Shown here: one piece after another, positions 20,548 to 48,150 of the stretch
Layout: each line of letters opens with the position of its first letter
Position numbering within the stretch: the first letter of the stretch is position 1
DNA from: Escherichia phage MikeNSara
Sequence record: OR896827.1
Strand: one strand, 5' to 3'
Length of the DNA: 50,759 bases
Notes under the pieces: generated by a model
Databases searched by the model: none
What the model was told of the DNA's origin: nothing
Seen by the model: the letters and a program-made list of their open reading frames with translations, nothing else
Made by a program: the position numbers and the translations under genes

Positions 20548-20590
20548 ACTATACACGATCCGACAAGCGGCGTTTAGCAAAAAGTGCTAC
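20548..20590 (-). promoter_or_regulatory. motif-type promoter cassette (leftward, 19-nt variant) for Cor-like operon
   Basis: GTTTAGCAAAAAGTGCTAC at 20572..20590, 18-bp spacer, -10 TATAGT on minus strand; lipoprotein ATG 20516 downstream. Confidence 0.45.
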
Positions 20591-20689
20591 TTGTTATTTT
20601 TTGTTTTTCGGTGTTATCGAATTTAAGACGGCGTAAATTTAGTGCAAATTTTAGCCAACATAAGGGCAATAAACAATCAATAAAATAGA

Positions 20690-21017
20690 TATATACATAT
20701 AAAATCAATAGTTTATTTATTTATGTATGTATATTTGTTTTTTCTTGTTATCTGTGTTTCTTGTGGTTTTGGTTGTTTGTGGTGATTTTTCTTTATGAGT
20801 ATCTGTATGTGCCATCATTCATGTGTATGTATATAATCCGGCGTATCTGAGAGAACAATGGAACAAGAAAAATAACACATATTAATCATTAACTTACGTG
20901 TCAAATTTGTTTTCTTGCCATCTGAGAACGTTTAGAAAACAGAAAAAACAAAACAACTATTGACTAAATCAACCAAATGGCTACAATGCACAAACAAAGC
21001 AACCAGGAGCATTAAAG
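20690..21017 (+). repeat. AT-rich control region, paralog A
   Basis: Shares ordered blocks with 40960..41298: TTTATTTATTTAT(G/A)T..TGTAT, TTTTGTTATCT, GTATCTGTATGTG, AACAAGAAAAA, TTGAC(T/A) promoter, AACCAGGAG RBS. Confidence 0.6.
20960..20987 (+). promoter_or_regulatory. sigma70-type promoter (TTGACT-16-TACAAT) upstream of recombination module
   Basis: Near-consensus -35 and -10 hexamers with 16-bp spacer, AT-rich upstream region; RBS and ATG 21018 about 30 nt downstream. Confidence 0.6.
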
Positions 21018-22073
21018 ATGAGTGATTTTAACGCCTACACTAGCGAAGAAATGAGCAACGAGCTTTATCATGATCCTAACGCATGGACGGCTGAATATGT
21101 CAGCGGTTCCAGCCTGGCGGAGATTTACAGCACTTGCCCGGCGTACTGGAAGTACAAGCCTCGCCAGGAAACCAAAGCACTTGTTTTCGGTACGCAGTCG
21201 CATACCAATTTTGAAAGCAAGGAGTTATTCGAAAAAACATATCGCCGCGCACCGTCGCAGGATGATTTTAAAGATCTGATCACAAGTCAAACGGCGTTAG
21301 CCTCAAAGCTGAAATCTTTTGGCCTGAAAGGTACGACGGGTAAGCAATACCCTGAATTGCTGGAAATGCTGTACAAGTGCGGTGAGGATCTCAATGTGTG
21401 GTGGCTTATCGAAATGATGGCAGAATGCCAGGCCGCAGCGGACGGCGTGCAGCTAATCGACGCGAAAGATTATGATGCCTGTGTAGCGATGCGGCGCGTA
21501 CTTGAGGCAATACCTGAGCATAATGCTTGCATGAATAGCCCAACCGCGCAGCGTGAAATGTCAATATTCGGGATCATCAATGGCGTAAAAGTTAAAGTGC
21601 GCCTTGATCACGTTGACGTAAACAAGGATGTAAAGGCCACAATCATTAACGGTTACGACGAAAAAGGCCGACCGATTTATGAAGAAGTCATCTATCCAGA
21701 AGCTGTGATTATCACTGACTATAAAACAACGGTTAGCGCAAATCCGGTTGACTTCCAGCGCCTGGCTTACAATCACGGCTATTATCTCAAAATGGCTTTG
21801 CAGCATGATTTATTTAAAAAGGCGTATCCAGACGAGGAAAGGCCAGTAATTGTGAGATTGCTTGCTCAAGAAAAGAAAGAGCCTTACTTGCCGCTCGCAT
21901 TCCGCATGAACATTGAGCAATTGAAGATCGGGCGTATCCAGTACATGAGCGTGATCAACAAGTTCAACGTTTGCCAACAGTTAGATGAATGGCCTTCGTA
22001 TGCAAACGGGCAACCAGAGATTGATCTTGATACTCCTGATTGGGTCCGCGCTCAATTCAGGCAGTATCTATGA
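21018..22073 (+). CDS. PD-(D/E)XK family recombination exonuclease
   Basis: First gene after a consensus sigma70 promoter; RBS AGGAG; (D/E)xK-type motif ...IITDYKT...; precedes Erf and SSB. Confidence 0.55.
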   Translation: MSDFNAYTSEEMSNELYHDPNAWTAEYVSGSSLAEIYSTCPAYWKYKPRQETKALVFGTQSHTNFESKELFEKTYRRAPSQDDFKDLITSQTALASKLKSFGLKGTTGKQYPELLEMLYKCGEDLNVWWLIEMMAECQAAADGVQLIDAKDYDACVAMRRVLEAIPEHNACMNSPTAQREMSIFGIINGVKVKVRLDHVDVNKDVKATIINGYDEKGRPIYEEVIYPEAVIITDYKTTVSANPVDFQRLAYNHGYYLKMALQHDLFKKAYPDEERPVIVRLLAQEKKEPYLPLAFRMNIEQLKIGRIQYMSVINKFNVCQQLDEWPSYANGQPEIDLDTPDWVRAQFRQYL

Positions 22074-22149
22074 CAAACTAAATAAATAGCTAAACTTTTA
22101 TAATGGTTGGTGATATAATTCGCCAACCAGATAACGGGAGAATGAAAAA

Positions 22150-22803
22150 ATGAAATTATCCGATCAGTTTGATAAGGTTTTGCCAGCATTGCACAAAGCG
22201 CGCAGCCTGTTTGTAAAAGTTAAAAAGGATCGCCAAAACAGCCACCTTAAAAACCGTTACGCTACGCTTGATTCAGTCCTGGATGCCATTACCCCAGCAT
22301 TGATGGATAATGAGCTTATGATCATGCAGGACGGCGAAAGAATTGATGTAAGCACATTGCGAGTTGAAACTACCGTCATGCACGTTTCGGGCCAATGGGT
22401 GAAATTCTATTTTGATATTCCGATCGTCAAAAACGACCCTCAAGGTGTGGGATCTGCTTTCACATACGGGCGTCGTTATTCTGCGGCTGCGGCCTTCGGA
22501 TTAAGCCAGGCGGACGATGACGCACAAATCGCTGTCAAGACGGTAAACGACTGGAAGCGAGATATTGAAAAATGCGAAAGCGTAGGAGAATTGCAAGAAG
22601 TGCTTAAAAATGCGTGGAAGTCAAGCGATGCGGCAAGCAAGCAAGTAATCCGCGATCACTACGAGAAGCGCAAGGCTGAAATTGAGATAGGCGGCGCTCG
22701 CGGATTTAATCCGGCAAAACCGAAAGAAAACCTAGCCAGCGACACCGTTGACACTCCAAATAGCGAGAAAGTAAAATCACAAAGTATCACTGACTTTGAA
22801 TAA
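22150..22803 (+). CDS. erf: Erf-family single-strand annealing protein
   Basis: N-terminal region with [12 protein letters not shown] and [12 protein letters not shown] motifs characteristic of ERF superfamily; followed by SSB. Confidence 0.8.
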
Positions 22804-22807
22804 TAAA

Positions 22808-22830
22808 CGGGGCGCTTGCGCCCCTTTTGT
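22808..22830 (+). terminator. intrinsic terminator after erf
   Basis: GGGGCGC-TTG-CGCCCC plus T4. Confidence 0.55.
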
Positions 22831-22846
22831 CATAGGAGAAAACAAA

Positions 22847-23299
22847 ATGCACGTTATTACAGGTGAGATCCGAAAAGAGCCAAAAGTAAAGCAAATGCCT
22901 AACGGCAGCACGCTATATGTTGTTGAGCTTTCCGAACGATATAAAGACCGTGAAGGCAATTGGCAGTATACAAACTATGTATTTTTCTTTAACGCGAAAA
23001 CAGACGGCCTGAATGGTTGGTATGCTGAGGCGTTCCAGGTTGGTAAGGTTATTTCTGTTTCCTGCGACACCTTGCGGGTTGAAACGCGAGAATACAACGG
23101 AAAGATTTACAGCACCGTGCAGCCTGGCGGATTTGCAAACTTGCTATTTAGCCAGCGAGGTGAAAGCCAGCAACAATATCAGCAGCGAACGCAAGGAGGC
23201 TTGGGGCAACCACAACAGCAACAGCAACAAAACCATCAACAGCAACCACAGCAAAGCAATCAGCCTCCGATTGACTTTGACGACGACATACCCTTCTAA
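22847..23299 (+). CDS. ssb: single-stranded DNA-binding protein
   Basis: OB-fold N-terminal domain, Q/G-rich linker, acidic C-terminal tail DFDDDIPF; start set to ATG 22847 with RBS AGGAG. Confidence 0.85.
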   Translation: MHVITGEIRKEPKVKQMPNGSTLYVVELSERYKDREGNWQYTNYVFFFNAKTDGLNGWYAEAFQVGKVISVSCDTLRVETREYNGKIYSTVQPGGFANLLFSQRGESQQQYQQRTQGGLGQPQQQQQQNHQQQPQQSNQPPIDFDDDIPF

Positions 23300-46856: not shown

Positions 46857-46886
46857 GCTCGCATCAACAATCAAGAGGAAATCACA

Positions 46887-47267
46887 ATGGTTAACATCCG
46901 AAAAATCCGCGTCGGCACTAAATTCTTAGTTACTTATGCAATTCCAGAGAGCGGAATGAAGAAGGGCCAGATTGTTAAGGTTGATAGCAAAAGGTTCGGG
47001 ATCCCTGGTATCAATGGCTATCTAATCAATAGAGATCTTGGATTCGACGGATTCGCTATCCGTGCGCTTGAGGGTATTGTTGCCACTCTTAAACGAATCA
47101 CTAATCATCGCGGCTGCCCAATCAAGACGATTAAAGCGCCAATAAATTACGGCAAACTGGATAATCGTCGAATCCGCCGCCTGGCGCGTAACGCGTTAAA
47201 ATTCCGTGGCGTAGGCGATGATTTCTACTATGGATACAAGAGGATTGCGCGCAATGCTGGCAAATAA
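46887..47267 (+). CDS. hypothetical basic protein
   Basis: RBS AGAGGA; downstream of motif promoter 46813..46856. Confidence 0.5.
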   Translation: MVNIRKIRVGTKFLVTYAIPESGMKKGQIVKVDSKRFGIPGINGYLINRDLGFDGFAIRALEGIVATLKRITNHRGCPIKTIKAPINYGKLDNRRIRRLARNALKFRGVGDDFYYGYKRIARNAGK

Positions 47268-47366
47268 CAATAACGCAACGAATCCTAAGCCACCTTTTGA
47301 TTTTCATTCCGCAATGATTGCGGTATTATCAATGCTACTTTTTCTTTATAGCATGAGGGCGCTACT

Positions 47367-47615
47367 ATGGTTTTTAACGCATTGAAACGACTGTTTAAGC
47401 CGGAATACCGGATCGTATTTTGCCGCGACTGTTCTACTTATCATGTGCAGCGACGCAGCTTAGGCGGCAATTGGCACTATGTTACAGACGACTTTTTCGG
47501 CATCATTGCCACTGAATTTAAGTATTACAGTGATGCTTATATGTACGTGAAGAAGCGCCACCGCTTACGCAAGTGTCGTTTTTCCGTGCTGATTCACGTT
47601 AATGATTGTTACTGA
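47367..47615 (+). CDS. hypothetical protein (Cys-containing, possible zinc-binding)
   Basis: RBS GAGGG; CRDC...HRLRKC pattern. Confidence 0.45.
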   Translation: MVFNALKRLFKPEYRIVFCRDCSTYHVQRRSLGGNWHYVTDDFFGIIATEFKYYSDAYMYVKKRHRLRKCRFSVLIHVNDCY

Positions 47616-47622
47616 GGTGAAA

Positions 47623-47805
47623 ATGAAAACTGGTATTATTATTCTTTTCCTGATCCTTTTCGGTAGCCATTTAACCATTAACTATGAGGGCATTATGGCC
47701 TTTTGGGGCAACTTGATGGTTTTTGCCGCTGGTTCAATTACTGGCTACTCTGACGGGAAAAAGGACGGCGTTCGCAAGATGCTGATGGGACTTAAACAAA
47801 AATAA
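47623..47805 (+). CDS. hypothetical membrane protein
   Basis: Start moved to ATG 47623 (RBS GAGGTGA); two hydrophobic helices. Confidence 0.4.
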   Translation: MKTGIIILFLILFGSHLTINYEGIMAFWGNLMVFAAGSITGYSDGKKDGVRKMLMGLKQK

Positions 47806-47816
47806 GGGGATCTGAA

Positions 47817-48107
47817 ATGGCAAACAAAACTTACCGCAAACTACTGGTTAACGCTTTTGAAAACATCGCGCAGTCTAACAAGTGGAACGACTCTAAACAC
47901 TCGCCAGTCACAATGAAGCGCGTCGGATTCAAAAATGCTCGTTCATGGGCGCGAGCTTTCGCAGCTTGCTATATGCCGGATGGTGGACTAGGAGCGATGG
48001 ACGATTTTTTGATCAACATGATAGAGGAAGCTGCGCGAGAGGATCGACCGCTGACACAGCGAGATTTTGATGACTTCGCGCGCGATGAGCTTTACTATCT
48101 GAGCTAA
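47817..48107 (+). CDS. hypothetical protein
   Basis: RBS AAGGGGA; stop abuts motif 48107..48126. Confidence 0.5.
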   Translation: MANKTYRKLLVNAFENIAQSNKWNDSKHSPVTMKRVGFKNARSWARAFAACYMPDGGLGAMDDFLINMIEEAAREDRPLTQRDFDDFARDELYYLS

Positions 48108-48150
48108 TAGCACTTTTTGTTAAAACTTCCGCAAGGGCATTTGATAAAGT
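48107..48150 (+). promoter_or_regulatory. motif-type promoter cassette
   Basis: Canonical 20-mer, 18-bp spacer, TAAAGT; gene 48183 downstream. Confidence 0.5.

Follow-up and report, generated by a model that had tools for sequence, protein, structure and literature searches.

A reiterated 20-bp element in the T1-like Escherichia phage MikeNSara resembles the host marbox and forms candidate class II activator-dependent promoters

How do phages of the T1 group transcribe their non-structural genes, when the promoters of the group have been left undefined since its first genome appeared in 2004? The question is raised by the genome of Escherichia phage MikeNSara (OR896827.1), here analysed as a single stretch of 50,759 nucleotides (50.8 kb, hereafter the window) that represents an essentially complete T1-like coliphage genome, and in which a 20-bp element, ATAGCACTTTTTGTTAAAAC, recurs in near-identical form ahead of the early genes. 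We are highly confident that the cassettes built on this element are promoters of an activator-dependent type, and on balance we favour the more specific reading that they are class II activator-dependent sigma70 promoters served by the host proteins Rob, MarA, or SoxS, with the 20-bp element acting as a marbox. For promoters of the T1 group, the class II marbox reading provides a concrete mechanism open to simple tests.

A search of the window with ATAGCACTTTTTGTTAAAAC at up to three mismatches returned 17 matches, compared with 0.00 expected from 100 shuffles, and a relaxed search combined with a position matrix added degenerate copies, giving 22 copies in total. Eighteen of these head gene-directed cassettes composed of the motif, an 18-bp spacer, a −10 hexamer, a CATCGAAACGA leader, and a ribosome-binding site (RBS), with motifs starting at 27047, 29536, 30606, 42029, 42492, 43706, 44931, 45302, 46813, and 48107 on the plus strand, and at 20571, 26556, 33847, 36009, 36683, 38882, 39379, and 40683 on the minus strand. 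The remaining four copies, at 1566(+), 6190(−), 9945(−), and 25485(+), are atypical. With the degenerate copies at 20571(−) and 46813(+) included, the tally between positions 20,548 and 48,150 comes to the 17 cassettes of the original prediction, and an 18th was found at 26556–26575(−), ahead of the primase gene. The accompanying proposal that the element always points in the direction of the gene that follows holds for the 18 cassettes, however the copy at 25485(+), within the same range, and those at 6190(−) and 9945(−), which lie outside it yet count among the 17 matches, point against the adjacent genes.

The consensus of the motif in the window is aaATAGCACTTTTTGTTAAAAC, with ATAGCAC, TTG, and TAAA its best-conserved positions. 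The spacer between motif and hexamer measures 18 bp in 17 of the 18 cassettes and 17 bp at 43706 if the hexamer there is read as TATAAT, exactly as had been described from the sequence at first sight. The −10-like hexamers share an A at position 2 and a T at position 6, and a G two bases 5′ of the hexamer, at −14, is conserved with an information content of 1.25 bits; a −10 in fixed phase together with this G lends support to the proposed sigma70-type cassettes. In most cassettes the leader starts CATCGA(A/C)AACGA and is followed by the RBS, with the start codon ~29–33 nt past the hexamer (an RBS and a start codon ~25–35 nt past it had been predicted) and the ATG 75–78 nt from the start of the motif. 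In 15 of the 18 cassettes the stop codon of the preceding gene falls within the motif or directly beside it, mostly as a TAG at motif positions 2–4 (for example 29537–29539, 42030–42032, and 45303–45305), and the cassettes are therefore internal to operons and would be traversed by upstream transcripts. Gene end, presumed activator site, −10, leader, and RBS are joined in one module of ~75 bp with no intergenic gap; a cassette so compact and portable would, if the marbox reading holds, probably promote the mosaic exchange of early genes, and may be reusable in synthetic biology.

The repeat in the window is the published direct repeat of T1-like phages, and so the repeat itself is not new. The 2024 re-annotation of phage TLS describes a 21-nt direct repeat, aaATAGCACnnnTTGnTAAAA, in 21 places, oriented along transcription and lying ~76 nt 5′ of start codons, divides it into A, T, and G subclasses, and reports it also from T1, Rtp, and Rogue1. 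The window element agrees with it in consensus, in its A/T/G subclasses, in its orientation with transcription, in the ~76 nt to the start codon, and in its many copies. Its authors recognise three sigma70-like promoters only and leave the function of the repeat open, with a stoperator, an enhancer-binding site, and an UP element put forward as suggestions. The fixed 18-bp phasing to a −10 and the identity with the marbox do not feature in the accessible text, and neither does Warwickvirus, the genus of the window. Over 20 kb the window shares 96–98% identity with the Escherichia phages vB_Eco_Sip, tiwna, tonijn, and FritzSarasin, the last being classified in Drexlerviridae, Tempevirinae, Warwickvirus. 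Papers on Sfin-1, Rogue1, AHS24, and KanT1 use generic promoter predictors only, and a full-text literature search with the exact 20-mer and its sub-strings returned nothing relevant. A link between the marbox, SoxS, MarA, or Rob and T1-like phages was not found in the searchable literature.

The arrangement extends well beyond the genus. A scan of related Drexlerviridae genomes, which had been recommended as a check on the motif, recovered the same motif, 18-bp spacing, and CATCGAAACGA leader in T1 and in Klebsiella Webervirus NJS1, Rogunavirus AHS24, and Rtpvirus IME253, the helicases of the last three being 54–64% identical to that of the window (54–67% with T1 included). T1 also carries copies at the same odd positions as the window, 5′ of the major capsid gene and past the major tail gene. 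Across 420 unique contexts, collected from T1-like viral contigs and the other loci fetched, a −10-like hexamer lies at exactly 18 bp from the motif in 316, at 17 bp in 19, and at 19 bp in a further 20.

The sequence of the element is that of a marbox. The consensus marbox published from chromatin immunoprecipitation sequencing (ChIP-seq) is 5′-gcactaattgctaaa-3′, and the phage element contains or nearly matches this consensus (GCACTAATTGCTAAA), which occurs in the window as an exact match at 1569–1583 and with a single mismatch (14/15) at 46816–46830. The core of the main repeat, GCACTTTTTGTTAAA, agrees with the consensus at 12 of 15 positions; the three differences fall at 15-mer positions 6, 7, and 11, where a matrix of real sites shows variation or only weak constraint. 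At up to three mismatches, the consensus marbox has 21 matches in the window, compared with 2.5 expected. The classical degenerate consensus, AYnGCACnnWnnRYYAAAYn, has 20 matches at up to one mismatch, compared with 1.5 expected. When scored with the site matrix, which was built from 57 Salmonella MarA/SoxS/Rob/RamA ChIP-seq sites, the phage core reaches 13.9 bits and its variants up to 16.5 bits, with a median of 11.4 bits for the real sites, 11 of the 57 scoring above the phage core; nearly all of the top matrix matches in the window are the repeats. The family-wide phage profile and the host profile align in a single register and orientation, with a mean column correlation of 0.73 compared with no more than 0.20 elsewhere, a difference partly shaped by how the instances were collected. 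Comparison by eye with the consensus binding sites of CRP, Fis, IHF, and Lrp yielded none that fits as well as the marbox.

The geometry of the cassettes is likewise that of marbox promoters. In all 18 the box is forward, with its GCAC end distal and its AAA end proximal to the −10 and the gene, and its centre falls at −40.5 to −41.5 if transcription starts 7–8 nt past the hexamer; the CA of CATCGA is conserved at the expected start position. The E. coli micF promoter, as read from the genome, consists of ACAGCACTGAATGTCAAAAC, 18 bp, and TAGAAT, the same 20 + 18 + 6 layout as the cassette, with a box identical to the phage motif at 15 of 20 positions, including the 3′ AAAAC. The micF start lies 7 nt past TAGAAT, as placed by the sequence of micF RNA, the genome record having no micF feature. 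In class II marbox promoters generally, a forward box lies over the −35 position with its centre near −41, the −10 is canonical, there is essentially no match to a −35, and the activator displaces or occludes sigma region 4 from the −35. Each of these sequence features, namely the box, its orientation, its position, and a weak −35 combined with a canonical −10, is found in the cassettes. Whilst the phage and host promoters share an asymmetric 20-bp GCAC/AAA box, placed forward over the −35 with its centre at ~−41 and 18 bp from the −10, a host promoter has one box of degenerate sequence, whereas the boxes of this virulent phage are near-identical, number ~18–22, and lie much nearer the consensus than most host sites, with the flanking ATA and TT also fixed. 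The phage cassettes furthermore add a GC-rich hairpin and the conserved CATCGAAACGA leader. A second type of marbox geometry is seen in T1, where a reverse copy (positions 101–164 of the T1 sequence analysed) lies 15 bp 5′ of TTGATT, 17 bp, TATGAT, with its centre at ~−61, as in class I promoters; this arrangement recurs in several T1-like contigs and is absent from the control region of the window.

The lack of a −35 also bears on a reading of the cassettes as ordinary, factor-independent sigma70 promoters, with TTAAAA as a weak −35, the T-tract and the bases upstream of it as an UP element, and the G at −14 as a partial extended −10. The original prediction had leaned towards this arrangement, taking the TTAAAA end of the motif as the −35 and the T-rich part as an UP element or activator site. 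TTAAAA does match TTGACA at four of six positions, the hexamers are good and the G at −14 is conserved, UP elements are among the guesses of the TLS authors, and T1 grows well in ordinary broth, in which levels of MarA and SoxS are low and most Rob is inactive. However, in 16 of the 18 cassettes the TTAAAA-like ends lie 19 bp from the −10, outside the 16–18 bp covered by our consensus sigma70 scan, and at 17–18 bp from the −10 the match to a −35 is 2–3 of 6. The scan found 28 promoter-like sites in the region compared with 34.4 expected, no excess, and detected one of the 18 cassettes, the one with the 17-bp spacer. The T-tract occupies −43 to −39, whereas the most invariant stretch, ATAGCAC at −50 to −44, contains G and C that an A/T-rich UP element would not need, and AGCAC, invariant at −48 to −44, does not resemble an UP element. 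The best-conserved positions, ATAGCAC, TTG, and TAAA, are instead the recognition elements of a marbox (GCAC, ~7 bp, AAA), and of the two earlier wordings it is the activator site that the evidence favours. Factor-independence would additionally leave unexplained the near-invariance of 20 bp across subfamilies and the single-register match to the marbox, and we regard it as decidedly unlikely.

From these sequence features we propose how binding, activation, the acting factor, and the start site would fit together under the class II marbox reading. The 20-bp repeat would be read by the pair of helix-turn-helix (HTH) motifs in a monomeric activator of the MarA/SoxS/Rob family, which would recognise GCAC at motif positions 4–7 and AAA at positions 16–18. 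The box points forward, covers ~−50 to −31 with its centre close to −41, and takes the place of a −35 hexamer; an activator bound to it could contact sigma region 4 and the C-terminal domain of the alpha subunit and so bring RNA polymerase to the good −10 18 bp downstream, with transcription predicted to start ~7 nt past the hexamer at the A of CATCGA. Because the phage encodes no AraC-family protein, the activator would most probably be a host protein, either the constitutive Rob or the stress-induced MarA or SoxS, with RamA as a further candidate in Klebsiella and Salmonella hosts. The T4 middle promoters activated by MotA/AsiA, the promoters of Mu Mor and C, and PRM under lambda cI also pair a good −10 with no −35, an activator box at ~−30 to −50, and contact with sigma region 4. 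The cassettes would follow the same logic, however the activators of these systems are phage-encoded and their boxes differ in sequence, whereas the box of the T1-like cassettes appears to be the marbox of the host, in a phage that seems to have no AraC-family protein of its own.

The case for a host protein is sharpened by the Pantoea myophage vB_PagM_PSKM (Dibbivirus), which lies outside Drexlerviridae and carries some ten cassettes identical to those of the window (ATAGCACTTTTTGTTAAAAC, a hairpin-bearing spacer of 18 bp, and TATTAT; 2744, 3627, 5411, 6380, 8399, 10223, 12624, 14471, and 17361 in the PSKM sequence analysed), and which shares with the window a module of helicase, primase, Dam, Dcm, and RecE genes. 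PSKM encodes gp47, a MarA-like AraC-family protein of 136 amino acids (HTH_18, E = 3.7e-13) with 28% identity to MarA, whose gene (12640–13050 on the minus strand of the same sequence) lies in an operon headed by a cassette, an arrangement that suggests positive autoregulation, as in marRAB. In contrast, no such gene was found in the window or in the Drexlerviridae examined. Searches (phmmer) with MarA, the sequence of which was verified against PDB entry 1BL0, and with gp47 returned nothing below E = 0.28 from six-frame translations of the window, T1, FritzSarasin, NJS1, AHS24, and IME253, and Pfam detected no AraC-family domain among 20 early proteins. When 50,697 phage records were searched by tblastn, no T1-like genome was among the 30 matches listed for MarA (a further 107 records lie beyond these) or among the matches listed for gp47, which comprised Dibbivirus at 95–100% identity, and two Pseudomonas phages and unannotated metagenomic contigs at below 40%. 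A phage-encoded MarA-like protein in T1-like phages was rejected on these phmmer, Pfam, and tblastn negatives. The same cis element thus occurs with a phage MarA-like gene in PSKM and without one in Drexlerviridae, which suggests that the latter use host proteins. Pseudomonas phage Motto was considered as a test in a host lacking MarA, SoxS, and Rob, and was set aside, its 45% G+C making the claimed host questionable as a clean control.

Several points weigh against a host activator. Decades of selection for T1-resistant E. coli have, to our knowledge, yielded mutants in the receptor and TonB and never in rob, marA, or soxS, and therefore no single factor can be essential, so that redundancy or an appreciable basal activity must be assumed. 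Under standard growth Rob is largely sequestered. Binding, transcription, and 5′-end data for T1-like phages were not found in the searchable literature. The first recognition helix of gp47 is unlike that of MarA, with W42, Q45, and R46 not kept, and gp47 cannot therefore be assumed to read the same bases. Within the motif, the phage strongly conserves bases on which a marbox places no demand (ATA at 1–3 and TT at 11–12), which hints at extra constraints, part of which is accounted for by the TAG stop codon; its use by the upstream gene may explain the fixation of positions 2–3. A partial dyad, TAGCA, 5 bp, TGYTA, with its centre near −42, would suit a dimeric phage regulator, and in the few lineages sampled the presence of the motif co-varies with that of a phage HTH regulator.

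This regulator, a Cro/YdaS-like HTH protein of 158 amino acids homologous to the T1 'transcriptional regulator' and encoded at 26559–27035 on the minus strand, is the sole candidate binder that the phage itself encodes and is at the centre of the main rival to a host activator. The motif would then be the operator of the phage protein, bound as a dimer on the dyad near −42 and acting as a class II activator in the manner of lambda cI at PRM or of Mu Mor and C, and the likeness to the marbox would be coincidental or convergent. The dyad pairs T2 with A16, A3 with T15, C5 with G13, and A6 with T12, and the regulator is the sole DNA-binding protein common to the motif-bearing lineages tested (T1, Webervirus, Rogunavirus, Rtpvirus, and PSKM). 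Related helicases also occur in Vibrio phage K217 and in three other, enterobacterial, phages, all of which lack the motif and are informative for the co-occurrence argument only; the three enterobacterial phages, whose helicase/primase module is homologous, have neither regulator nor motif. The regulator gene also has a leftward sigma70-like promoter of its own (TTTAAA, 17 bp, TATAAT), and as this promoter overlaps a motif copy, the regulator could be made early and could regulate itself. However, only six lineages underlie the co-occurrence, with phylogeny as a confounder, and the putative recognition helix of the regulator varies widely (SQQVVNQW, SNQTVQGW, TRQAVEEW, and PFSGVRSW) among phages whose 20-bp motif is identical. 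The motif is asymmetric both in its AAA(A)C, conserved on the 3′ side alone, and in its strict orientation to the −10, and a symmetric dimer requires neither. Furthermore, a phage operator would leave unexplained the 15/15 match to the marbox, the 18-bp spacing identical to that of micF, and the class I arrangement in T1, and would give no reason for the MarA-like gene behind a cassette in PSKM. We therefore consider this rival unlikely. At 27047–27114 the helicase cassette and the leftward promoter of the regulator have overlapping −10s, with the leader of the regulator running antisense through the marbox, and this could be a switch between the two directions.

If the preferred reading, a host activator at class II marbox promoters, is carried to its full extent, it is conceivable, though we put this forward as a tentative picture, that these phages possess no early or middle factor of their own for these promoters, and that nearly all of the non-structural genes would be transcribed from ~20 consensus-strength class II marbox promoters under host MarA, SoxS, Rob, and RamA. 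Phage development might then be coupled to the sensing of antibiotics, oxidative stress, and bile salts by the host, the phage genomes could act as an activator sponge, and the reverse boxes may hold late genes back. Hundreds of replicating genomes, each with ~20 high-affinity boxes, would drain the activators from the mar/sox/rob regulon, including AcrAB-TolC and micF/OmpF. The reading would take in Drexlerviridae, including the Klebsiella weberviruses used in therapy, and, if the class II marbox reading holds, a whole family of virulent enterobacterial phages would depend on, and may titrate, the regulators of intrinsic antibiotic resistance, with a bearing on synergy and antagonism between phages and antibiotics, on host range within Enterobacterales, and on the behaviour of phages in the bile-rich gut.

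Beyond the box and the −10, the cassettes carry stable hairpins. The GC-rich palindromic spacers that had been remarked upon are borne out and can be extended to hairpins of −12 to −18 kcal/mol in 13 of 17 cassettes of the window, with a mean z of −2.7 relative to shuffles. Each hairpin is a GC-rich inverted repeat that lies in the spacer or brackets the −10, spanning about −27 to +4 relative to the predicted start (for example 44951–44985 and 48127–48160). Across the family, 253 of 354 cassettes have a hairpin at −9 kcal/mol or stronger, 200 of the 253 bracketing the −10; its stability is a little higher on the sense strand than on the other, and close relatives show compensatory changes that keep the hairpins. 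The GenBank record of T1 labels several of them as terminators, and two of the spacer hairpins in the window qualify as intrinsic terminators in a scan, yet across the family the hairpin tails are not T-rich, with a mean of 1.6 T in 8 nt and at least 5 T in 14 of 137; ordinary intrinsic termination was therefore rejected as their role.

The spacer at 30626–30643 does recur inverted at 33829–33846, as had been pointed out, and lies within a 62-nt inverted repeat of 89% identity (30605–30666 and 33806–33867) that spans two whole cassettes including the shared spacer. This lends support to the cassette duplication inferred earlier, and suggests either such a duplication or recombination at module borders. 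The inverted pair flanks a 3.1-kb block with holin, endolysin, and spanin genes.

Hairpins, inverted pair, and stop codons together raise the possibility that the repeat is mainly something other than a promoter, such as a repressor or 'stoperator' site, an RNA-level signal acting together with the hairpin (in processing, 3′-end stabilisation, or attenuation), or a recombination boundary. The adjacent hairpins are under selection, as judged from their frequency in the family and from the compensatory changes, and some carry terminator labels in the T1 record; the preceding gene reaches up to or into the motif in 15 of 18 cassettes, and read-through RNA therefore contains the motif; an inverted cassette pair surrounds the lysis block; stoperators are mentioned by the TLS authors; and copies with no usable −10 are kept in position, namely those at 1566, 6190, 9945, and 25485 and the small-terminase copy of T1. 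However, rigid 18-bp phasing to a −10 with its A2 and T6, as found in the 316 contexts, is a property of a DNA promoter, the hairpin tails are not rich in T, and the annotation of FritzSarasin, a close relative, includes neither a repressor nor an integrase. The stoperators of mycobacteriophage L5, asymmetric sites that block elongation, stand in no fixed relation to a −10, and go with a phage repressor gene, share with the sites of the window a single orientation and an intergenic position, whereas the window sites are phased to a −10 at 18 bp. Non-promoter roles are moreover compatible with the promoter reading as secondary functions, as additions and not replacements, and we hold it very improbable that they are the main role of the repeat.

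Which genes, then, would the cassettes serve? On the plus strand, a cassette at 27047–27090 (ATAGCATTTTTTGTTAAAAC, 18 bp, TATTAT) precedes the helicase gene (ATG 27123), and one at 29536–29579 (CATAAT) precedes the Dam methylase gene (ATG 29619), with the upstream open reading frame terminating on the TAG of the motif. The cassette at 30606–30649 (CATAAT), the left arm of the 62-nt inverted repeat, is followed by a gene at 30682. Further to the right, cassettes lie at 42029–42072 (CATAAT, with a hairpin internal to the spacer), ahead of a gene at 42105, at 42492–42535 (CATAAT), ahead of the gene at 42590–43480, and at 43706–43749, ahead of a gene with its ATG near 43779, the last having a 17-bp spacer if its hexamer is TATAAT (43743–43748). 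The cassette at 44931–44974 (ATAGCACTTTTTGCAAAAAC, 18 bp, TATAGT) has a hairpin that brackets the −10 and precedes a gene at 45006, and that at 45302–45345 (TATAGT), for a gene at 45377, has a hairpin that is retained in FritzSarasin through a compensatory C-G to T-A change. A cassette of the 'GAA' class at 46813–46856 (ATAGCACGAATTGCTAAACG, 18 bp, TATAAT), for a gene at 46887, lies outside the 17 matches to the 20-mer, and its box is the one with a single mismatch to the published consensus marbox. The rightmost cassette, at 48107–48150 (TAAAGT), precedes a gene at 48183 and has a hairpin bracketing the −10.

On the minus strand, the leftmost cassette, at 20547–20590 (GTAGCACTTTTTGCTAAACG, 18 bp, ATAGTT), has a degenerate motif copy and would serve a small lipoprotein-like gene with its ATG near 20516. 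The degenerate cassette at 26532–26575 (ACAGCACGAATAGCTAATGA, 18 bp, TAATAT; motif 26556–26575) belongs to the primase gene (ATG 26511); the stop codon of the HTH regulator gene lies within its motif, and its hairpin brackets the −10 and is followed by a T-run. The cassette at 33823–33866 (TATATT), ahead of the gene at 33562–33786, makes up the right-hand arm of the 62-nt inverted repeat, and the cassette at 30606 has the identical spacer. A second helicase gene (ATG 35956) is preceded by the cassette at 35985–36028 (ATAGCACTTTTTGACAAAAC, 18 bp, TAAAAT), the hairpin of which brackets the −10, as does that of the cassette at 38858–38901 (TATATT), ahead of the gene at 38629–38826; the cassette at 36659–36702 (CATAAT), ahead of the gene at 36243–36629, has its hairpin inside the spacer. 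A small gene with its ATG near 39321 follows the cassette at 39355–39398 (TACATT), and the cassette at 40659–40702 (TACATT), for the gene at 40352–40624, is the first leftward cassette beside a divergent control region.

The four atypical copies are of a different kind. The copy at 1566–1585(+) (ATAGCACTAATTGCTAAAAA) lies directly past the large terminase gene and just ahead of a terminator hairpin, and a −10 at 18 bp is lacking; its core, at 1569–1583, is the 15/15 match to the published consensus marbox. The degenerate copy at 25485–25504(+) (ATAGCACTTTTTGCTAATGA), also with no −10, abuts the RBS of the leftward (lateral) tail-fibre gene in the opposite orientation, and its position is kept in T1-like contigs. 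A T1 copy at 8362–8381 of the T1 sequence analysed abuts the RBS of the small terminase gene in a similar manner, with no usable −10. The copy at 9945–9964(−) runs against the late genes. On one side it leads directly into a terminator past the major tail gene, and on the other it abuts the RBS of the gene at 9979; its −10 (TAGATT) is weak, and its position is kept in T1.

The fourth atypical copy, at 6190–6209(−), also runs against the surrounding late genes and has no proper −10. It takes up the whole spacer of a putative extended −10 sigma70 promoter, at 6185–6212(+), for late expression of the major capsid gene (TTGCAC, 16 bp, TGcTATCAT), and the T1 counterpart (15049–15105 of the T1 sequence analysed; TTGACG, 16 bp, TGcTATTAT) has the same arrangement, as do other contigs. 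At the E. coli rob promoter, a reverse marbox within the core promoter is reported to lead to repression by MarA, SoxS, or Rob. The copy at 6190–6209 resembles that case in being a reverse box in the 16-bp spacer of a putative sigma70 promoter, in T1 as well, and the activator may repress the capsid promoter through it; unlike the rob promoter, however, the capsid promoter is so far a prediction. For the two reverse copies, at 6190 and 9945, a class I arrangement was rejected because the implied start sites lie inside or past the start codons. A 5′-proximal hairpin with a T-run comes after the capsid promoter.

The structural genes, placed by synteny with FritzSarasin, occupy ~1–19.3 kb and run rightward, and the rest of the window holds, on both strands, the recombination, replication, methylase, and lysis genes together with many small genes of unknown function. 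The divergent control region contains, with no motif attached, a near-consensus sigma70 promoter at 41242–41270(+) (TTGACA, 17 bp, GATAAT) that serves the gene of a DUF7174 protein and is probably activator-independent, and probably an immediate-early promoter. The DUF7174 early protein (41300–41763) was considered as the factor acting on the cassettes and dropped, because a homologue is lacking even in T1 and PSKM. The same control region includes a low-complexity stretch of TATATA and GTGTAT repeats at 40940–41110.

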